NCBI GenBank assembly: GCA_947628015.1
Contig: CANQYG010000002.1
Span: 1-38,240 of the forward strand
Reading direction: 5' to 3'
Origin: an uncultured Clostridia bacterium
GTDB lineage: Bacteria > Bacillota > Clostridia > TANB77 > CAG-508
Length of the DNA: 38,240 nt
Part shown: positions 691 to 19,450 of the stretch, piece by piece
How the letters are laid out: each line of letters begins with the position of its first letter
How positions within the stretch are numbered: position 1 is the first letter of the stretch
Notes under the pieces: generated by a model
The model's input: only the letters and a program-made list of their open reading frames with translations
Told to the model about the DNA's origin: nothing
Databases searched by the model: none
Made by a program: the position numbers and the translations under genes

Positions 691-878
691 ATTAAGCTAA
701 AAACTTAATAAAAAATTAATATGTAAAAAATATAGCATAATGAATGGGGAAAAGCAAGGAAATAAAAAAGAAAAATATATCACAATTTGATAAAAAATGA
801 AAAGCAAAAAATCTTAGAAAAGCTTAGGACAAGCTGATTATAAGATTTTTTGCTTTTTTATTAAGTTTTTAGCTTAAT
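691..878. promoter_or_regulatory. IR-bounded switch-like element, copy 1 (candidate invertible promoter)
   Basis: Perfect 25-bp inverted repeat attaagctaaaaacttaataaaaaa (691-715) / ttttttattaagtttttagcttaat (854-878) encloses 138 bp. Inside is a minus-strand promoter TTGCTT-17 bp-TGcTATATT (757 down to 729) facing away from the gene. Also inside is an A-tract/stem/T-tract hairpin (800-816 with 841-857; inner AGCTT/AAGCT stem). Confidence 0.6.
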
Positions 879-916
879 AAAAATAACATAATGTAAAGGA
901 AAGGATATGAAAACAA

Positions 917-2077
917 ATGAAAGTTAAGAAAATACAAGAAAAAGAAAAAATCAAATTACAACTAAAAAATAAGAAAAAAGTACAGAAATTAAAAGAAAAA
1001 GGTATAACATTAATAGCACTAGTAGTAACAATAATAATATTGTTAATTTTAGCAGGAGTGACATTAAATATGGCAATGTCAGGAGATGGTTTATTTAGTA
1101 GAGCAAGAAATGCAGCAGAAAAATATAAAAAAGCCCAAGAAGATGAATCACAACTAATAAGTGAAATAGGAAAGGAAATGAATATCGAATATGTTGGAGC
1201 ATATATAACAGGATATACTCCAACAAGTGGTTCATGCACAATAACAGGAGAACAATCAGGAACAGATGCAGATCAAACATTTGAAACTACTAAAGAACAA
1301 GAAAATGAAAAAGAATTAAAATGGAGAATTTGGGACTATGATGGAACAACATTAAGGATAATATTAGATAAAGCCACGACACAAACCCTAAAACTAAAAG
1401 GAGCAGCAGGATATAATAATGGAGTGTATTTAATAAATGAAGTATGTAGGCAATGTTTTGGACAATACGAAGGAGATAATGATAATAAAAAAATGAAAGA
1501 AGGAATAAGTGTAGCAAATTTAAGAAGAAGTGATATAGAAAAGGTAAGTAAATATGATTATACGAAATATAAACATAAACCAAGTAGTTGGTTAGAAGTA
1601 TTTGATAATAATTTAGAGGAAAATTTAATATATTATGGCGATACAAAAGAAGATAAGAATAATTTTCAAGCACCAACTATGTGGAGTAATTATGATTCTA
1701 AATGGAATTATAATTATAACAAACGAACAGATACTAGTTCAGGGAATGCAAGTTGTGAAACTCCATGGGAACAAGAAAATGGAAGTAAAACAGAGAATGA
1801 TAATACATTACAAATGACTGAATTCAAACAATCATATTATTCTCATGAGTATAAAGGAAAAGAAAATGAATTTAAAAATTTGAAATATTATGATATGATT
1901 TTTACTAAAGAATTTAATGATGATCCAGAATATGGATACTGGCTTGCCGGACGTTACGTTGGTTTATATGAAGAATATTGTGATTTTGGATTACATCTTG
2001 TTAGTGGCTCTAATAATAGAAGACTTGTGAACGGGTGGTTGTTACTTGATACAAAACGGAAATATTTACGAACATAA
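917..2077 (+). CDS. Pilin-like N-terminally anchored surface protein, paralog A (apparently frameshifted near the 3' end)
   Basis: 386-aa ORF. It has a Lys-rich leader then KEKG|ITLIALVVTIIILLILAGVTL (prepilin-like hydrophobic helix). It is homologous along its length to the 9985..11226 product. SD AAAGGAAAGGA lies upstream. The homologous C-terminal tail continues in another frame. Confidence 0.7.
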   Translation: MKVKKIQEKEKIKLQLKNKKKVQKLKEKGITLIALVVTIIILLILAGVTLNMAMSGDGLFSRARNAAEKYKKAQEDESQLISEIGKEMNIEYVGAYITGYTPTSGSCTITGEQSGTDADQTFETTKEQENEKELKWRIWDYDGTTLRIILDKATTQTLKLKGAAGYNNGVYLINEVCRQCFGQYEGDNDNKKMKEGISVANLRRSDIEKVSKYDYTKYKHKPSSWLEVFDNNLEENLIYYGDTKEDKNNFQAPTMWSNYDSKWNYNYNKRTDTSSGNASCETPWEQENGSKTENDNTLQMTEFKQSYYSHEYKGKENEFKNLKYYDMIFTKEFNDDPEYGYWLAGRYVGLYEEYCDFGLHLVSGSNNRRLVNGWLLLDTKRKYLRT

Positions 2078-2183
2078 TTTTCCACTTCGACCAATAGTTT
2101 CTATTAATCTAAAAAATAGTGGATATAACTTAGTAAAAAATAATGATAATGAAAATTATGAATTGATAAAAGAAAATATATAG
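2031..2183 (+). pseudogene. Displaced C-terminal segment of paralog A in the +1 frame
   Basis: The frame open from 2031 encodes TGGCYLIQNGNIYEHNFPLRPIVSINLKNSGYNLVKNNDNENYELIKENI*. This matches the C-terminus of paralog C (KKLRPIVSINLKSSGYSLKK...). The intrinsic terminator sits just after this stop, not after the 2077 stop. Confidence 0.6.
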
Positions 2184-2245: not shown

Positions 2246-2271
2246 AATTTATATTTTAGAAGGTGACAGTT

Positions 2272-3030
2272 ATGGTATATGTAGATAATTTTGGAAATAT
2301 AATTGAAAATTCTAATATAAACTTTTCTAATATTGATTCTATAAATTTTGAATTAGATAAAAAGTATAAAAGTACTAATCCAGCACTAAGTATTAAATTT
2401 TCTAATAATATTGAAAAAAATATAAAATATATACAGAAATTATTAGATTTTCAAAAATTACATATAGACTTTATGACGGAATATAATGGCAAAAAAATAA
2501 AATATGTAATTTCTAATTACAATAATGATGTGAAAATAGCATTAAAAGCACTTTTCATAAATAATTCTAAAAAACAATATTTATTTTTATATGATAACAT
2601 TTTTAAATCTTTAGATATATTGTGGAATAAAAATAATCCATGTAAATTTTGCAATAATATATGTTCTGCATCAAAAAATAATAAATCAGCATATAAAGAA
2701 AATGGATGTTGCTATTCATTTGACTATTCTAAAAATATATTCAAATTTATTGATAATGTAAAATTATGCAAATATCTTGGTAAAGATAAAAATTGTATGA
2801 CAGAGAATATATCTTGTAAATTTTTTGCATGCAATTATTTAAAAAGAAATAATATATTTAATATTGATATGAAAAATTATATTCTTGTTCAAGCTTTCTT
2901 TAATAAAAAGCAAAAATTAGTTTTGAAATATAATTATTTTAAATCTAAAGAGGAAATTATAGAAAAACTTATAGAAAAAAATAATACACCATTTTTAATA
3001 TATTATTTTTTTAGTAAATATAGAATATGA
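2272..3030 (+). CDS. Cysteine-cluster protein, YkgJ/UPF0153 (CxxCxxCC, FliB-like) family candidate
   Basis: The ORF track starts at GTG 2263, but ATG 2272 has better SD spacing (GAAGGTG acagtt ATG). Cys pattern is C-x2-C-x3-C ... CC ... C-x8-C-x6-C-x4-C. The family call is from motif memory only. Confidence 0.45.
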   Translation: MVYVDNFGNIIENSNINFSNIDSINFELDKKYKSTNPALSIKFSNNIEKNIKYIQKLLDFQKLHIDFMTEYNGKKIKYVISNYNNDVKIALKALFINNSKKQYLFLYDNIFKSLDILWNKNNPCKFCNNICSASKNNKSAYKENGCCYSFDYSKNIFKFIDNVKLCKYLGKDKNCMTENISCKFFACNYLKRNNIFNIDMKNYILVQAFFNKKQKLVLKYNYFKSKEEIIEKLIEKNNTPFLIYYFFSKYRI

Positions 3031-3052: not shown

Positions 3053-3245
3053 TTTATTAATGTAAAAACTTAATAAAAATTAATATATGAAAAATATAGC
3101 ATAGTATAAGTATAAAATCAAGAAAATAAAAATTAAAAGTTTGTAATAATTTAATAAAAAATGAAAAGTAAAGATTTTATAAAAAGCTTGAGGAAAGCTG
3201 ATTATAAGATTTTTTACTTTTTTATTAAGTTTTTACATTAATAAA
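3053..3245. promoter_or_regulatory. IR-bounded switch-like element, copy 2 (candidate invertible promoter)
   Basis: Perfect 27-bp inverted repeat tttattaatgtaaaaacttaataaaaa (3053-3079) / tttttattaagtttttacattaataaa (3219-3245) encloses 139 bp. Inside is a minus-strand promoter TTGATT-17-TGcTATATT (3121 down to 3093). An imperfect hairpin spans about 3164-3221 with an inner AGCTT/AAGCT stem (3185-3189 / 3195-3199). Confidence 0.6.
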
Positions 3246-3279: not shown

Positions 3280-4110
3280 ATGAAATGTAAGGAAACACAA
3301 GAACAAGAAAAGATTAATTTACAGTTAATAAATAAGAAAAAAGTACAAAAATTAAAAGAAAAAGGAATAACATTAATAGCATTAGTAGTAACAATAATAA
3401 TCTTATTAATATTAGCAGGAGTAACATTAAATATGGCACTATCAGGAGATGGACTATTTAACAAAGCAAAATTAGCAATAAATAAATATGATGTAGCAAG
3501 TGAACAAGAAGTATTACAACAACAAATAATAGAATATCAAATGGATAATAATATAGATAAAATAGGAGAAAAATTAACAAATAGAAGTGTAACAGATAGC
3601 AGTTGGAAGGTAATACAATTAAATAATTCAGATAAAAACTATGGAACAAATTATTACTATATACAAAAAGATATTGCTGAGATACCTAATTATGGAAAAG
3701 CAAAATATAATTGGGTAATGAATTATGAAACAGGAGAAGTAATAAATATAGAAGAATATACAAAATTAGATGGTAATTCAGGAATATCAGTAACAGATAA
3801 CATAGCTTTGAATATAAATCCAATAAATTTGAGTGATAAAACTTCATGGGGAAGTAATGTAAATTTTATTGGTAATGAAGAAGAATCGGAAAACTCAGGA
3901 GTACAAGGAACAGAATTAAAATTTGATGGAATAGATGACTACCTAAAAATAGATAATGTAAAAATTGAAGAAAATGATGGAATTACATTTGAGTTTTATG
4001 GTACATTTGACGGAGACTGCTTGTATCCTCTTGAGGCATTAAAGATTAATGAAGATAATGTACCTTGTGGTGTGAAAGGATTTAGGATGGAGGTTCGGTT
4101 GGGCAAATGA
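3280..4110 (+). CDS. Pilin-like N-terminally anchored surface protein, paralog B, N-terminal portion (frame-disrupted)
   Basis: It has the same leader and hydrophobic helix as paralogs A and C (KEKGITLIALVVTIIILLILAGVTL). The C-terminal part begins a LamG/concanavalin-like domain (ELKFDGIDDYLKIDN...), which continues in the next ORF in another frame. Confidence 0.7.
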   Translation: MKCKETQEQEKINLQLINKKKVQKLKEKGITLIALVVTIIILLILAGVTLNMALSGDGLFNKAKLAINKYDVASEQEVLQQQIIEYQMDNNIDKIGEKLTNRSVTDSSWKVIQLNNSDKNYGTNYYYIQKDIAEIPNYGKAKYNWVMNYETGEVINIEEYTKLDGNSGISVTDNIALNINPINLSDKTSWGSNVNFIGNEEESENSGVQGTELKFDGIDDYLKIDNVKIEENDGITFEFYGTFDGDCLYPLEALKINEDNVPCGVKGFRMEVRLGK

Positions 4111-4111
4111 G

Positions 4112-4531
4112 GTGGTTACTTGCTGCTTCGGAATTGGAGATAGCGAGAGCGATATCAAAGATAATTATAGAGGACAACACTGGTTTACCTTTGAGAATAT
4201 TGGTTCGATAAAAAGTAATACTCCTGTCTATTTTTCGATTTCTGTTAATTATAAAACTGGTAGTGTTAATTTGTATTGGATGGGAGAGAATGGTACACTT
4301 ATTTGTAGAAGTACAATATGTTCTACGGAATATTTGAATAAAGGTAGAGAACTTATGAAGGACGCATCATATTGTGTTGGTGGTTATTATGGAGGAAATA
4401 ATCCTCATGCGTCATATTCTAAGATGAATTTGTATGCTTGTAGATTATATAATAGGATATTAGATTCTACAGAGGTAGAAAGAAACTTTAATGAAAGCAT
4501 TAATTATCGTAAATATTTAATGGAAAATTGA
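4112..4531 (+). CDS. C-terminal LamG/concanavalin-A-like lectin domain fragment of paralog B (frame open from 4076)
   Basis: It ends with the LamG_3-like signature ...SKMNLYACRLYNRILDSTEVERNF. It has no SD of its own. It overlaps the end of 3280..4110 in the +1 frame. Confidence 0.6.
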   Translation: MVTCCFGIGDSESDIKDNYRGQHWFTFENIGSIKSNTPVYFSISVNYKTGSVNLYWMGENGTLICRSTICSTEYLNKGRELMKDASYCVGGYYGGNNPHASYSKMNLYACRLYNRILDSTEVERNFNESINYRKYLMEN

Positions 4532-9692: not shown

Positions 9693-9761
9693 TTAATTTT
9701 TCTCATTTTATTTCAATATTTTCTTTCATTTTAAGATTTTATGTTCAAATAAAAAATTATA

Positions 9762-9947
9762 ATTAATGTAAAAACTTAATAAAAATTACTATGTTAGAAA
9801 TATAGCATAATATCAATATAAAATCAATAAAATAAAAATTAAAAGTTTGTAATAATTTTATAGAAAATAGAAAAGAAAAATTTTATAAAAGCTTAAGGTA
9901 AGCCTATTATAAGATTTTTTACTTTTTTATTAAGTTTTTACCTTAAT
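9762..9947. promoter_or_regulatory. IR-bounded switch-like element, copy 3 (candidate invertible promoter)
   Basis: 24-bp inverted repeat attaatgtaaaaacttaataaaaa (9762-9785) / tttttattaagtttttaccttaat (9924-9947), with one mismatch (9767 vs 9942), encloses 138 bp. Inside is a minus-strand promoter TTGATT-17-TGcTATATT (9827 down to 9799). An imperfect hairpin spans about 9871-9926 with an inner GCTTA/TAAGC stem (9891-9895 / 9899-9903). Confidence 0.6.
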
Positions 9948-9984
9948 AAAAATAACATAATGTAAAATTGGAGGGATAAAACAA

Positions 9985-11226
9985 ATGAAATGTAAGGAAA
10001 TACAAGAAAAAGAAAAGATACTTAATAAGAAAAAAGTACAGAAATTAAAAGAAAAAGGAATAACATTAATAGCGCTTGTTGTAACAATAATAATATTGTT
10101 AATATTAGCAGGAGTGACATTAAATATGGCAATGTCAGGAGATGGATTGTTTAGCAAAGCAAGAGATGCAGCAGATAAGTATAAAAAAGCACAAGAAAAT
10201 GAAGAAAAAATATTAGAAGAAGTAGTAGATGATATGGAAAACATAAATATTGATTACAACGATTATGTTGGAGCATATGTAGAAGGATATGAACCAACAA
10301 GCGGAACTTGTACAATAAAAGGAACACAATCTGGAAAAAATGAGGATAAAACATTTTCTACAACAGGAGAAACAAAAGGTATAGAATGGAGAATCTGGGA
10401 CTATGATGGAACAACAATAAGATTAATATCCGATAAGCCAACAGAACAAACATTAACATTAACTGGAACAAATGGATATAATAATGGAGTATGGATAGTA
10501 AATGAAATTTGTAGGCAATGTTTTGGTCAATATGAAAATGGAGAAATGAAACAGGGAATAAATGTGGCAAATTTAAGGAGAAGTGATATTCAAAAGATAA
10601 GTACATATGATTATACCAAATTTGCACGTGTGAATGGAGACTGGGAAGATAAAGAAAATGGAGATATAAAATATGGAAGTAGCAAACCATATAGTAATTC
10701 AAAAAATCCTAAAATATGGGTAAATTATGATAAAAAATGGGAATATGAAAATAAAGATGGTGTAGGTAGTGGAGAAGATAAAGAAGGACTAATATTTGAA
10801 GAAGAAGGAACAAATGATGAAAGTATTGATGGATTGGGTGAAAGTGAGGATATTACCACGATTAAACAATCTGTATATTCACATAGGTATATAAAAGAAG
10901 ATTTTAAAAATATGAAATATTATGATATTATTTTTAATGGAAAAGATTACGAAGATGATTTTTGGTTATCAACACGAGGGTGTAATGTTCAGGATACTTT
11001 TTGTGATTTTGGATTAAACTATATTGCAATACATAGTGGAAATGAAACTTATGTAGTTTTAGAATCAATTACCAATACAACAGGTGGTTTGGGACTTAGA
11101 GAAACACAAACGAAGAAACTACGTCCTATTGTTTCAATAAATTTAAAGAGTAGTGGATATTCATTAAAAAAGATAAGAGGCTCTGACGGAAAAGTAGGTT
11201 TTAAGTTACAACAGAGTGGGAGCTAA
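9985..11226 (+). CDS. Pilin-like N-terminally anchored surface protein, paralog C (intact)
   Basis: 413 aa with the same leader and helix (KEKGITLIALVVTIIILLILAGVTL). It is colinear with paralog A (YVGAY..GY.PTSG.CTI, WRIWDYDGTT, GYNNGV, CRQCFGQYE, VANLRRSDI, LRPIVSINLK). Confidence 0.8.
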   Translation: MKCKEIQEKEKILNKKKVQKLKEKGITLIALVVTIIILLILAGVTLNMAMSGDGLFSKARDAADKYKKAQENEEKILEEVVDDMENINIDYNDYVGAYVEGYEPTSGTCTIKGTQSGKNEDKTFSTTGETKGIEWRIWDYDGTTIRLISDKPTEQTLTLTGTNGYNNGVWIVNEICRQCFGQYENGEMKQGINVANLRRSDIQKISTYDYTKFARVNGDWEDKENGDIKYGSSKPYSNSKNPKIWVNYDKKWEYENKDGVGSGEDKEGLIFEEEGTNDESIDGLGESEDITTIKQSVYSHRYIKEDFKNMKYYDIIFNGKDYEDDFWLSTRGCNVQDTFCDFGLNYIAIHSGNETYVVLESITNTTGGLGLRETQTKKLRPIVSINLKSSGYSLKKIRGSDGKVGFKLQQSGS

Positions 11227-18643: not shown

Positions 18644-18709
18644 CAAAAAGATAAAAACATGATAATAATTTACGTTTCTACAAATTATAAAGAAAGGAAA
18701 AATTTTATT

Positions 18710-19450
18710 ATGGTAAAAAGTGAAAAAGGTTCAGTTACATTAATAGTTTTAGCAACTATATTATTTATTCTTGCAGTTTTAGCAGTAAATTTAATATATG
18801 TATCATCAAAAAGAAAATCACAAATACAAGAAACAATGATATTACAAAATGTATATGATACTGGAATGGAAGAAACTTATAATGAACAAGTTGCGAAAAT
18901 AAACGCTGCAACACAAATATTCACATATACAGGAGAAGTTCAAACATATACAGTTACTAAATCTGGAACATATATTCTAGAAGTTTATGGTGCAGAAGGT
19001 GGAAGTGCATCTTTAGAAAAACAATCTGGAGAAAATGAAACATCTGCTGGTGATAAAGGAGAATATACAAAAGGAACAATTGAGCTAGAAAAAGGACAAA
19101 CTCTTTATGTGTATATAGGAAAACAAGGTGAAGATGCAACAGGAGAAGAAAAAATATTAAATAATGAAGAAAATGTTACTGAAAATAATTCTACAGTGAG
19201 TGCAGATGGTGGAAAAGCAACATACATTACTACTAAGGAAGGAGAATTATCTTCGCAATCAAATTCGGAAAATGACATTTTAGTAATTGCTAAAGGTGGT
19301 AATGGCGGACATTGTGGAGAAGGTTCAACAGTAGAAACAGGAGAAGGAACTGGAATAACAAGTAATGCAGAAAACGTTACGACAAAAACAAGTGATAGAG
19401 ATGGAAATGGATATGCAAAAATTTCACTATCTAAAGAAATAGATGAATAA
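18710..19450 (+). CDS. Glycine-rich-domain protein with pilin/TadE-like N-terminal hydrophobic anchor
   Basis: Likely start is ATG 18710 (MVKSEKGSVTLIVLATILFILAVLAV) with SD AAAGGAAAA. It carries the FTYTGEVQTYTVTKSGTYILEVYGAEGG ... LYVYIGKQG pattern of bacterial glycine-rich domains. Confidence 0.6.
   Translation: MVKSEKGSVTLIVLATILFILAVLAVNLIYVSSKRKSQIQETMILQNVYDTGMEETYNEQVAKINAATQIFTYTGEVQTYTVTKSGTYILEVYGAEGGSASLEKQSGENETSAGDKGEYTKGTIELEKGQTLYVYIGKQGEDATGEEKILNNEENVTENNSTVSADGGKATYITTKEGELSSQSNSENDILVIAKGGNGGHCGEGSTVETGEGTGITSNAENVTTKTSDRDGNGYAKISLSKEIDE

Follow-up and report, generated by a model that had tools for sequence, protein, structure and literature searches.

The segment at positions 687-882 of the DNA analysed here (a stretch of 38,240 nt from an uncultured Clostridia bacterium, referred to throughout as the window) is probably an invertible promoter element, or inverton, as are the segments at 3053-3245 and 9756-9953. 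A preliminary description of the window had read the first of these segments as a promoter-inversion switch that controls a pilin-like gene. Comparative analysis makes that reading a likely one, in that the element belongs to a family of at least 19 whose arms carry variable spacers that are matched within each locus and whose promoter is conserved and points outward. We refer to the three elements as switches 1, 2 and 3, and to the genes immediately downstream of them as genes A, B and C.

Results

Repeat arms, predicted promoter and hairpin of switch 1

The window consists of chromosomal DNA of 27% GC from a spore-forming, Clostridia-type organism and contains uvrC, lspA, murE-mraY-ftsW-murG, topA, smc, murA, ftsQ/A/Z, spoIIGA and genes for sigma factors. 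Exact-protein look-ups of gene A and of UvrC returned no match on record. (Note that a protein with an ALK/LTK glycine-rich domain (PF12810) is encoded at 18659-19450, where it adjoins topA.)

An inverted-repeat search found that switch 1 is bounded by repeats at 687-715 and 854-882, each of 29 nt, that exhibit 97% complementarity with one mismatch. The search recovered the perfect 25-bp repeat that had been described at 691-715 and 854-878, and inspection of the sequence confirmed both the 138 nt between the arms and the 38 nt that separate the perfect core from the ATG of gene A at 917 (the distance is 34 nt when counted from the 29-nt arm). An inverted repeat of this kind is far beyond chance. 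In particular, when the 38-kb window was simulated 200 times with a first-order Markov model (27% GC), the longest perfect inverted repeat with arms 50-300 nt apart was 18 bp, as against the 25 and 27 bp observed; furthermore, the arm motif occurs at 6 places in the window when 0.19 are expected (there are 8 matches in all, two of which are self-palindromic re-hits). The distal arm (IRL, 687-715) reads TTTAATTAAG-CTAAAAA-CTTAATAAAAAA and is made up of an outer half-site, a 7-nt spacer and an inner half-site. The gene-proximal arm (IRR, 854-882) carries a spacer complementary to that of the IRL, and is followed on the plus strand by the leader and ribosome-binding region of gene A (883-916).

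Between the arms lies a minus-strand extended -10 promoter at 729-757 (TTGCTT at 757-752, 17 nt, TGcTATATT at 737-729) that points away from gene A. This promoter was found exactly as the preliminary description had it, and its -35 element, spacing and -10 element are conserved across the 19 elements of the family. As judged from its position and strand, it would be able to drive the adjacent gene in one orientation of the segment only. Note that the generic promoter scan did not list it, because TTGCTT matches TTGACA at only 3 of 6 positions and is thus a weak -35 element. A second promoter-like site is present on the minus strand at 837-864 (TTAATA-16-TATAAT, 10/12) and overlaps both the right arm of the hairpin described below and the proximal repeat; it is possibly conserved only because the hairpin and the arm are.

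The segment also contains an AU-rich hairpin of 18-20 bp at 800-857, with an inner AGCTT/AAGCT stem and with T-runs after the stem on both strands. The inverted-repeat search placed its arms at 800-819 and 838-857 (20 nt, 95%), and RNA folding gave -24.7 kcal/mol (z = -4.4) for the plus strand and -22.4 kcal/mol (z = -5.4) for the minus strand; the symmetric hairpin reported earlier, with the same inner stem and a tract on either side, is present by both approaches. The generic terminator scan found 0 terminators, and the hairpin fails the criteria of that scan because it has too few G-C pairs. We consider it probable, on the strength of the stem and the flanking T-runs, that the hairpin terminates transcription in both directions and protects gene A from read-through that originates upstream. 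(Note that the hairpin loop contains a short repeat, AAGCTTA...AAGCTGA, whose copies are ~11 nt apart; this repeat is found at 820-840 and also at 3184-3203 and 9887-9906, and in the related locus L056 the palindrome is lost and the loop repeat is kept as a direct repeat, GGCTTA...GGCTAA. The loop repeat may be a binding site for an accessory protein.)

Sister elements and the genes downstream of them

Switch 1 has two paralogues in the window, both of which had been missed in the preliminary description, and each of the three elements is located ~35 nt upstream of a pilin-like gene. Switch 2 (3053-3245) has arms at 3053-3079 and 3219-3245 that are perfect over 27 bp and carry the spacer GTAAAAA, a minus-strand promoter at 3093-3121, and a hairpin before the IRR. 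Switch 3 (9756-9953) has arms at 9756-9785 and 9924-9953 with the spacer GTAAAAA in both, a T/G mismatch directly outside the spacer, a minus-strand promoter at 9799-9827, and a hairpin. Homology among the three copies begins at the distal arm and takes in the segment, proximal arm, conserved leader ATAACATAATGT and N-terminal coding region, and their left flanks are unrelated. Within the window the arm motif is confined to the six arms of these elements.

The extent of this homology bears on two further explanations that we consider very improbable, namely that the elements are MITE-like mobile elements with an outward promoter, or that the arms pair as a long-range RNA stem for processing or attenuation. 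The copies do resemble MITEs in being multi-copy, short and non-coding, with inverted repeats at both ends, and genes of the Rpn/PDDEXK_2 type, annotated as putative transposases, adjoin some of them. However, direct reading of the sequence revealed no target-site duplication at the ends of the arms, and the ends of MITEs are without locus-specific matched spacers. Moreover, the fact that the homology of the copies extends past the IRR via the leader into the N-terminal coding region argues that the copies arose with the gene. With respect to an RNA stem, the two arms should not occur together on one transcript, given that they are separated by a terminator-like hairpin and that the promoter is directed the other way; in addition, an Rfam search gave only a noise-level match to a miRNA.

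Genes A, B and C share a Lys-rich leader followed by a KG/ITLIALVVTIIILLILAGV helix. Gene A (917-2183, plus strand) would specify a pilin-like surface protein in which the Lys-rich leader precedes the hydrophobic helix KG/ITLIALVV, and is frameshifted: its ORF occupies 917-2077, and the C-terminal motif of the family (FPLRPIVSINLKNSGY) resumes in another frame after ~2040 and extends to 2183. In gene B (3280-4531, plus strand), a pilin-like paralogue, a frameshift splits the coding sequence into 3280-4110 and 4112-4531, and the LamG-like domain carries on as the second of these ORFs. Gene C (9985-11226, plus strand) is an intact pilin-like paralogue of 413 aa that belongs to a large protein family. 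The ribosome-binding site of gene A is weaker than those of genes B and C. The frameshifts could mean that genes A and B are pseudogenes, or could reflect assembly errors or slippage. (Note that the DNA between gene A and switch 2 contains, at 2263-3030, a Cys-rich ORF of 255 aa that matched no family. Note also that the 3' parts of three surface-protein genes exhibit a shift in composition, at 400-700, 1900-2100 and 4000-4400, with a GC content of 0.33-0.41 and an AT skew of ~0 compared to +0.3 to +0.4 elsewhere in these genes. A diversity-generating retroelement was considered as the cause and set aside, since the window contains neither a template-like repeat nor a reverse transcriptase.)

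In view of the frameshifts in genes A and B, the targets of switches 1 and 2 may be decaying genes. We entertained the idea, which strikes us as quite unlikely, that the elements are relics: the family would have inverted once, or would still do so in other species, the copies in this genome being locked OFF, their recombinase lost and their genes in decay. The two frameshifts, the weakened ribosome-binding site of gene A, the mismatch next to the spacer of switch 3 and the lack of a recombinase gene in the window would all be accounted for in this way. Nevertheless, the arms pair perfectly over 25 bp in switch 1 and over 27 bp in switch 2, and the spacers of all three switches are matched, which would not be the case under neutral decay. 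Moreover, gene C is intact.

The family is very large: in the protein collection, gene C gave 3345 hits and a member from the human gut gave 4571. The middle and C-terminal domains of the family vary (Big_2, LRR_5, LamG-like and others). Type IV pilins and pseudopilins have a class III signal peptide with G at -1, an N-terminal hydrophobic helix, and Glu at +5. The KG/ITLIALVV sequence of the regulated proteins has Ala, not Glu, at +5; their match to N_methyl (E = 0.005-0.007, 16-17 bits) falls below the 21.2-bit cut-off, GspG gave only a weak match, for L017, and nothing informative on the regulated proteins was obtained from PDB or NCBIfam. Note that a family member in L060 (1-7385) is found just downstream of a cluster that encodes a T2SSE-type ATPase and small unannotated proteins, and this cluster may specify pilus or pseudopilus machinery that handles the pilin-like proteins. 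Note also that in L048-L051 (e.g. L048 9664-10000) the family member P0074 occurs without an element, and has instead an ordinary TTGACT-17-TAAGAT promoter and a divergent gene for a small HTH_3 regulator.

A family of elements in gut Clostridia

A census of rabbit-gut and human-gut assemblies, made by way of the contigs of homologues and by pattern scans, yielded 19 two-arm elements (31 observations), one of which, L067, is on a contig of 1.69 Mb. All but one of the elements (18/19) are directly upstream of a pilin-like gene, and four parts are common to 19/19: the arms, the outward promoter, the hairpin with its T-run, and the conserved leader or 5' UTR with a ribosome-binding site. The two halves of each arm, ATTAA[G/T] and CTTAAT, form an imperfect palindrome around an asymmetric spacer of 7 nt, and an A/T-run (an A-run where it follows CTTAAT) adjoins the inner side; in the 19 elements the arms take the form ATTAA[G/T] / 7-nt spacer / CTTAATAAAA. 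The half-sites that flank the spacer are invariant.

The spacer occurs in seven variants among the loci (CTAAAAA, GTAAAAA, ATAAAAA, GAAAAAA, GTATAAA, TAATAAA and TTATAAA), and is complementary between the two arms of a locus in 31/31 observations. In the alignment of the 19 sequences, the three variable columns of the spacer contain 0 unpaired cells, and the covariation score of the spacer is 0.151 compared to 0.035 in shuffles (0 of 500 reached 0.151) and no more than 0.021 in slid registers. Directly outside the spacer, the two arms fail to pair in 7/19 elements, which have T in the distal arm and G in the proximal arm at this position.

The promoter, TTGnnn-17-TGnTAtAtT, is conserved in the 19 elements on the strand opposite the gene, and the sequence of its 17-nt spacer drifts. 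On the side that the promoter faces, the flanks are unrelated among loci and nothing in them is conserved. The hairpin and T-run are always just inside the gene-proximal arm; in the human-gut subfamily the sequence of the hairpin is unrelated, with its position and form kept.

A metagenome scan with the arm and leader gave no match, and a relaxed version of the scan returned 31 loci, of which ~9 are real elements and the rest chance matches. Only chance matches were obtained in a scan of viral contigs, and BLAST against phage and plasmid collections found no related DNA. The literature contains no description that we could find of the arm sequence, or of invertons upstream of this pilin-like family in Clostridia.

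Orientation of the elements

The promoter points away from the gene (the OFF orientation) in 19/19 two-arm elements and in 31/31 observations, and among these 31 two-arm observations no locus was seen in both orientations. Either the OFF orientation dominates strongly, or the copies flip rarely or never. A uniformly OFF consensus is expected if each of many paralogous loci is ON in only a small share of the cells. The case for inversion is nevertheless weakest here, in that no locus was seen in both states and no recombinase gene was found in the window or in the annotated flanks of related loci.

The opposite arrangement was found in relatives. In L022, from the human gut, at least 112 nt of the inner segment are present with the promoter facing a pilin-like gene, which is the ON arrangement. 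This segment is the reverse complement of that of L012 at 95.7% identity, and the order of its parts is TTGCAT-17-TGcTATAAA, 13 nt, proximal arm, 24 nt, and the ATG of a pilin-like LRR_5 protein. (The contig starts inside the segment and covers the region from there to the gene, the distal arm lying outside it.) An orthologue of the L022 gene, with 96% identity and the same downstream pta, is present in five other samples (L068-L072). There the promoter, arm and leader are as in L022, with the promoter facing the pilin-like LRR_5 gene and with no second arm, and homology to the segment stops ~30 nt upstream of the -35 element, beside the terminator of the preceding fab gene. This one-armed copy, which occupies ~175 nt upstream of the gene (e.g. 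L068 7827-8000), is identical in the five samples and has an arm spacer with a substitution (TTTTAAG). Its sequence marks it as a one-armed, "locked-ON" derivative of the element.

When the L017 segment was flipped in silico and compared with the upstream region of L068, 123/138 positions were identical (89%), with ~three differences from the -35 element to the ATG; without the flip, 98/140 were identical. Together with L022 and L068-L072, this comparison argues that at least one inversion bounded exactly by the arms has taken place in the history of the family. The sequences of these relatives indicate that the ON geometry exists and that it serves a real gene. The layout predicted for the flipped state, in which the promoter is followed by 13 nt, the arm, the 5' UTR and the gene, is the one that L022 and L068-L072 display.

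These observations can be set against the possibility, in our view an unlikely one, that the element is a fixed module that does not invert. In such a module the arms would be operators bound by a regulatory protein that possibly loops the 138-bp segment, the leftward promoter would make a regulatory or antisense RNA, and the gene would use another, unrecognised promoter. A fixed module would account for the single orientation of the two-arm elements, and the lone arm between promoter and gene in L068-L072 is placed as an operator might be. However, an operator needs no locus-variable spacer that is matched between both arms, the flanks faced by the promoter are unrelated, and neither the promoter scan nor the 19-element alignment revealed a conserved plus-strand promoter between the IRR and the ATG. 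Furthermore, the same type of segment is reversed in L022.

Two other kinds of observation were considered as evidence of inversion and rejected. Contigs that end at or in elements (L006, L007, L010, L011, L054, L055, L058, L059 and L064-L066) were not taken to indicate mixed orientation, because the elements are multi-copy repeats, which break assemblies anyway. In L024 (600-1000), an AT-rich promoter with one arm faces an Rpn gene and is joined to GC-rich DNA (an EtfB-like start); since the other side is GC-rich, the contig is probably chimeric.

Arms as apparent breakpoints and the question of the recombinase

L062 and L063, from two human-gut samples, encode an identical protein (P0205), and their proximal arm, leader and more than 5 kb of downstream DNA are 98.7-100% identical. 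In contrast, identity between the inner segments is only 65%, and the left flanks show no relationship (the pfk side in one and the def-fmt side in the other). Followed leftward from the ATG, the identity ends exactly at the inner edge of the proximal arm, and the arm thus behaves as a recombination breakpoint. Note that the elements of L062 (8936-9107) and L063 (9737-9909) have the spacer TAATAAA in common; their sequences suggest a large rearrangement between switches that carry the same spacer. L012 and L029 have the left flank and distal arm in common and differ on the right side. Both cases are consistent with recombination at the arms of elements whose spacers coincide.

Pfam scans of the 32 ORFs in the window revealed no integrase, resolvase or transposase domain, which bears out the earlier statement that the window contains no recombinase gene, and none was found in the annotated flanks of related loci. 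Several elements are adjoined by genes of the Rpn family (PDDEXK_2, TIGR01784; "recombination-promoting nuclease/putative transposase"), namely in L012 (2367-4402), L029 (1904-2932), L002 (1-123) and L067 (12330-12932). In L012 and L029 the Rpn gene is divergent and the OFF-state promoter points at it. The adjacency could be due to chance, these being multi-copy genes, or to co-regulation.

Discussion

We propose the following account of how switches 1, 2 and 3 would work as invertons. Both arms would be bound by a site-specific recombinase whose gene would lie elsewhere in the genome, and strand exchange within the 7-nt spacer would flip the segment, which is of 138 bp in switch 1. In the OFF state, which is the one assembled, a sigma-A-type promoter would fire away from the pilin-like gene, and the hairpin and T-run beside the gene-proximal arm would stop read-through from the co-directional upstream gene; with the promoter directed outward and read-through stopped, the gene would therefore be silent. 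In the ON state the promoter would lie 13 nt from the gene-proximal arm, and its transcripts would cross the arm and the leader before entering the gene. The resulting 5' UTR of ~75 nt would include the IRR and the conserved leader, and the hairpin, now upstream of the promoter, would serve as an insulator. That the segments flip in this genome is something we infer from the comparisons above.

As to the type of recombinase, the layout of the arms points to a tyrosine recombinase. The core sites of Cre/loxP, FLP/FRT and XerCD/dif consist of conserved binding elements around an overlap that is identical in partner sites. The arms described here have the layout of such a core, with inverted elements around a 7-nt asymmetric spacer and 0 mismatches between the spacers of the two arms, and a locus-specific spacer that is always matched between arms is expected where strand exchange requires identity. 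A parallel can be drawn with heterospecific lox and FRT sites, which likewise have inverted binding elements around an asymmetric spacer of 7-8 bp, require identity between partners, and avoid cross-reaction when their spacers differ. Spacer variants of lox and FRT are engineered, however, whereas those described here are natural and distributed across a gene family, and their spacer-dependent specificity is putative. A serine invertase of the Hin/Gin type was also considered and rejected. Systems of this type have 26-bp dyad sites with a central 2-bp crossover, an invertase gene in or next to the segment, and an enhancer. The 138-nt segment is too small for a gene, there is no resolvase domain in the window, and the dyad centre is an odd 7-nt spacer.

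Invertons are a well-known kind of system, and the working principle proposed here matches that of fimS, of the polysaccharide promoters of Bacteroides and of the RecV-dependent switches of Clostridioides difficile. The fimS element of E. coli is a 314-bp segment with 9-bp inverted repeats and with fimB and fimE adjacent to it. The preliminary description had likened switch 1 to fimS, and the likeness holds for the mechanism, since in both a promoter on an invertible segment would turn a pilus-type gene ON or OFF, FimB and FimE being tyrosine recombinases. It does not hold for family membership: unlike fimS, switch 1 has 138 bp between arms of 25-29 bp, no adjacent recombinase gene, and a terminator-like hairpin inside the segment. 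Switch 1 is thus an analogue of fimS and not a member of its family.

In Bacteroides fragilis, promoters of capsular polysaccharide loci are flipped by Mpi, a serine recombinase, and PhaseFinder has identified invertons in gut bacteria. The elements described here resemble these multi-locus invertible promoters in that short, repeat-flanked promoter segments precede many paralogous surface-structure loci in one genome, the arms have a common consensus, and the recombinase gene is not beside each switch. They differ in their host (uncultured, spore-forming Clostridia of 27% GC), in an arm sequence that is unrelated, in the locus-specific 7-nt spacer in the arms, and in the hairpin and T-run built into the segment. 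In C. difficile, the cwpV, flgB and cmrRST switches are flipped by the tyrosine recombinase RecV, a single enzyme that acts in trans on several sites, and cwpV is mostly OFF in populations. These switches share with ours a Firmicute host and short invertible segments in the 5' regions of surface or motility genes. Unlike the switches proposed here, those of cwpV and flgB act after transcription start, through terminator formation or Rho-dependent effects in the leader, and the promoter is not moved. We know of no resemblance between the inverted repeats of the C. difficile switches and the present arms.

A more far-reaching possibility, which we put forward tentatively and think rather unlikely, is that the family constitutes an "addressed" inverton network, in which one master recombinase would act on tens of switches upstream of pilin-like adhesins, a very large and fast-diverging family, in gut Clostridia with small genomes. 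The locus-specific 7-nt spacers might then, speculatively, be natural heterospecific addresses that keep the switches independent of one another, and coinciding spacers could, on the same doubtful footing, allow the swapping of promoters and genes as well as large chromosomal inversions of the kind suggested by L062 and L063. In a bolder variant, the neighbouring Rpn/PDDEXK_2 nucleases may take part in switching or be co-regulated with it.

Three features of these elements are of some interest: spacers that vary naturally among loci and yet match within each locus, a hairpin inside the segment that resembles a two-way terminator, and the derivative that is locked ON. The matched, locus-variable spacers make the family a natural test case for how one recombinase might operate many independent switches and leave the chromosome unscrambled. 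The arm consensus ATTAAK-N7-CTTAATAAAA can serve as a search key for read-based inverton callers in metagenomes. To our knowledge, phase-variable surface proteins as a strategy of immune or phage evasion and of adhesion have so far been documented mainly in Bacteroides and in a few pathogens. If the switches flip, then in uncultured Clostridia of the rabbit and human gut a very large family of surface proteins with a pilin-type anchor would be subject to phase variation, with most copies silent and few expressed at a time.
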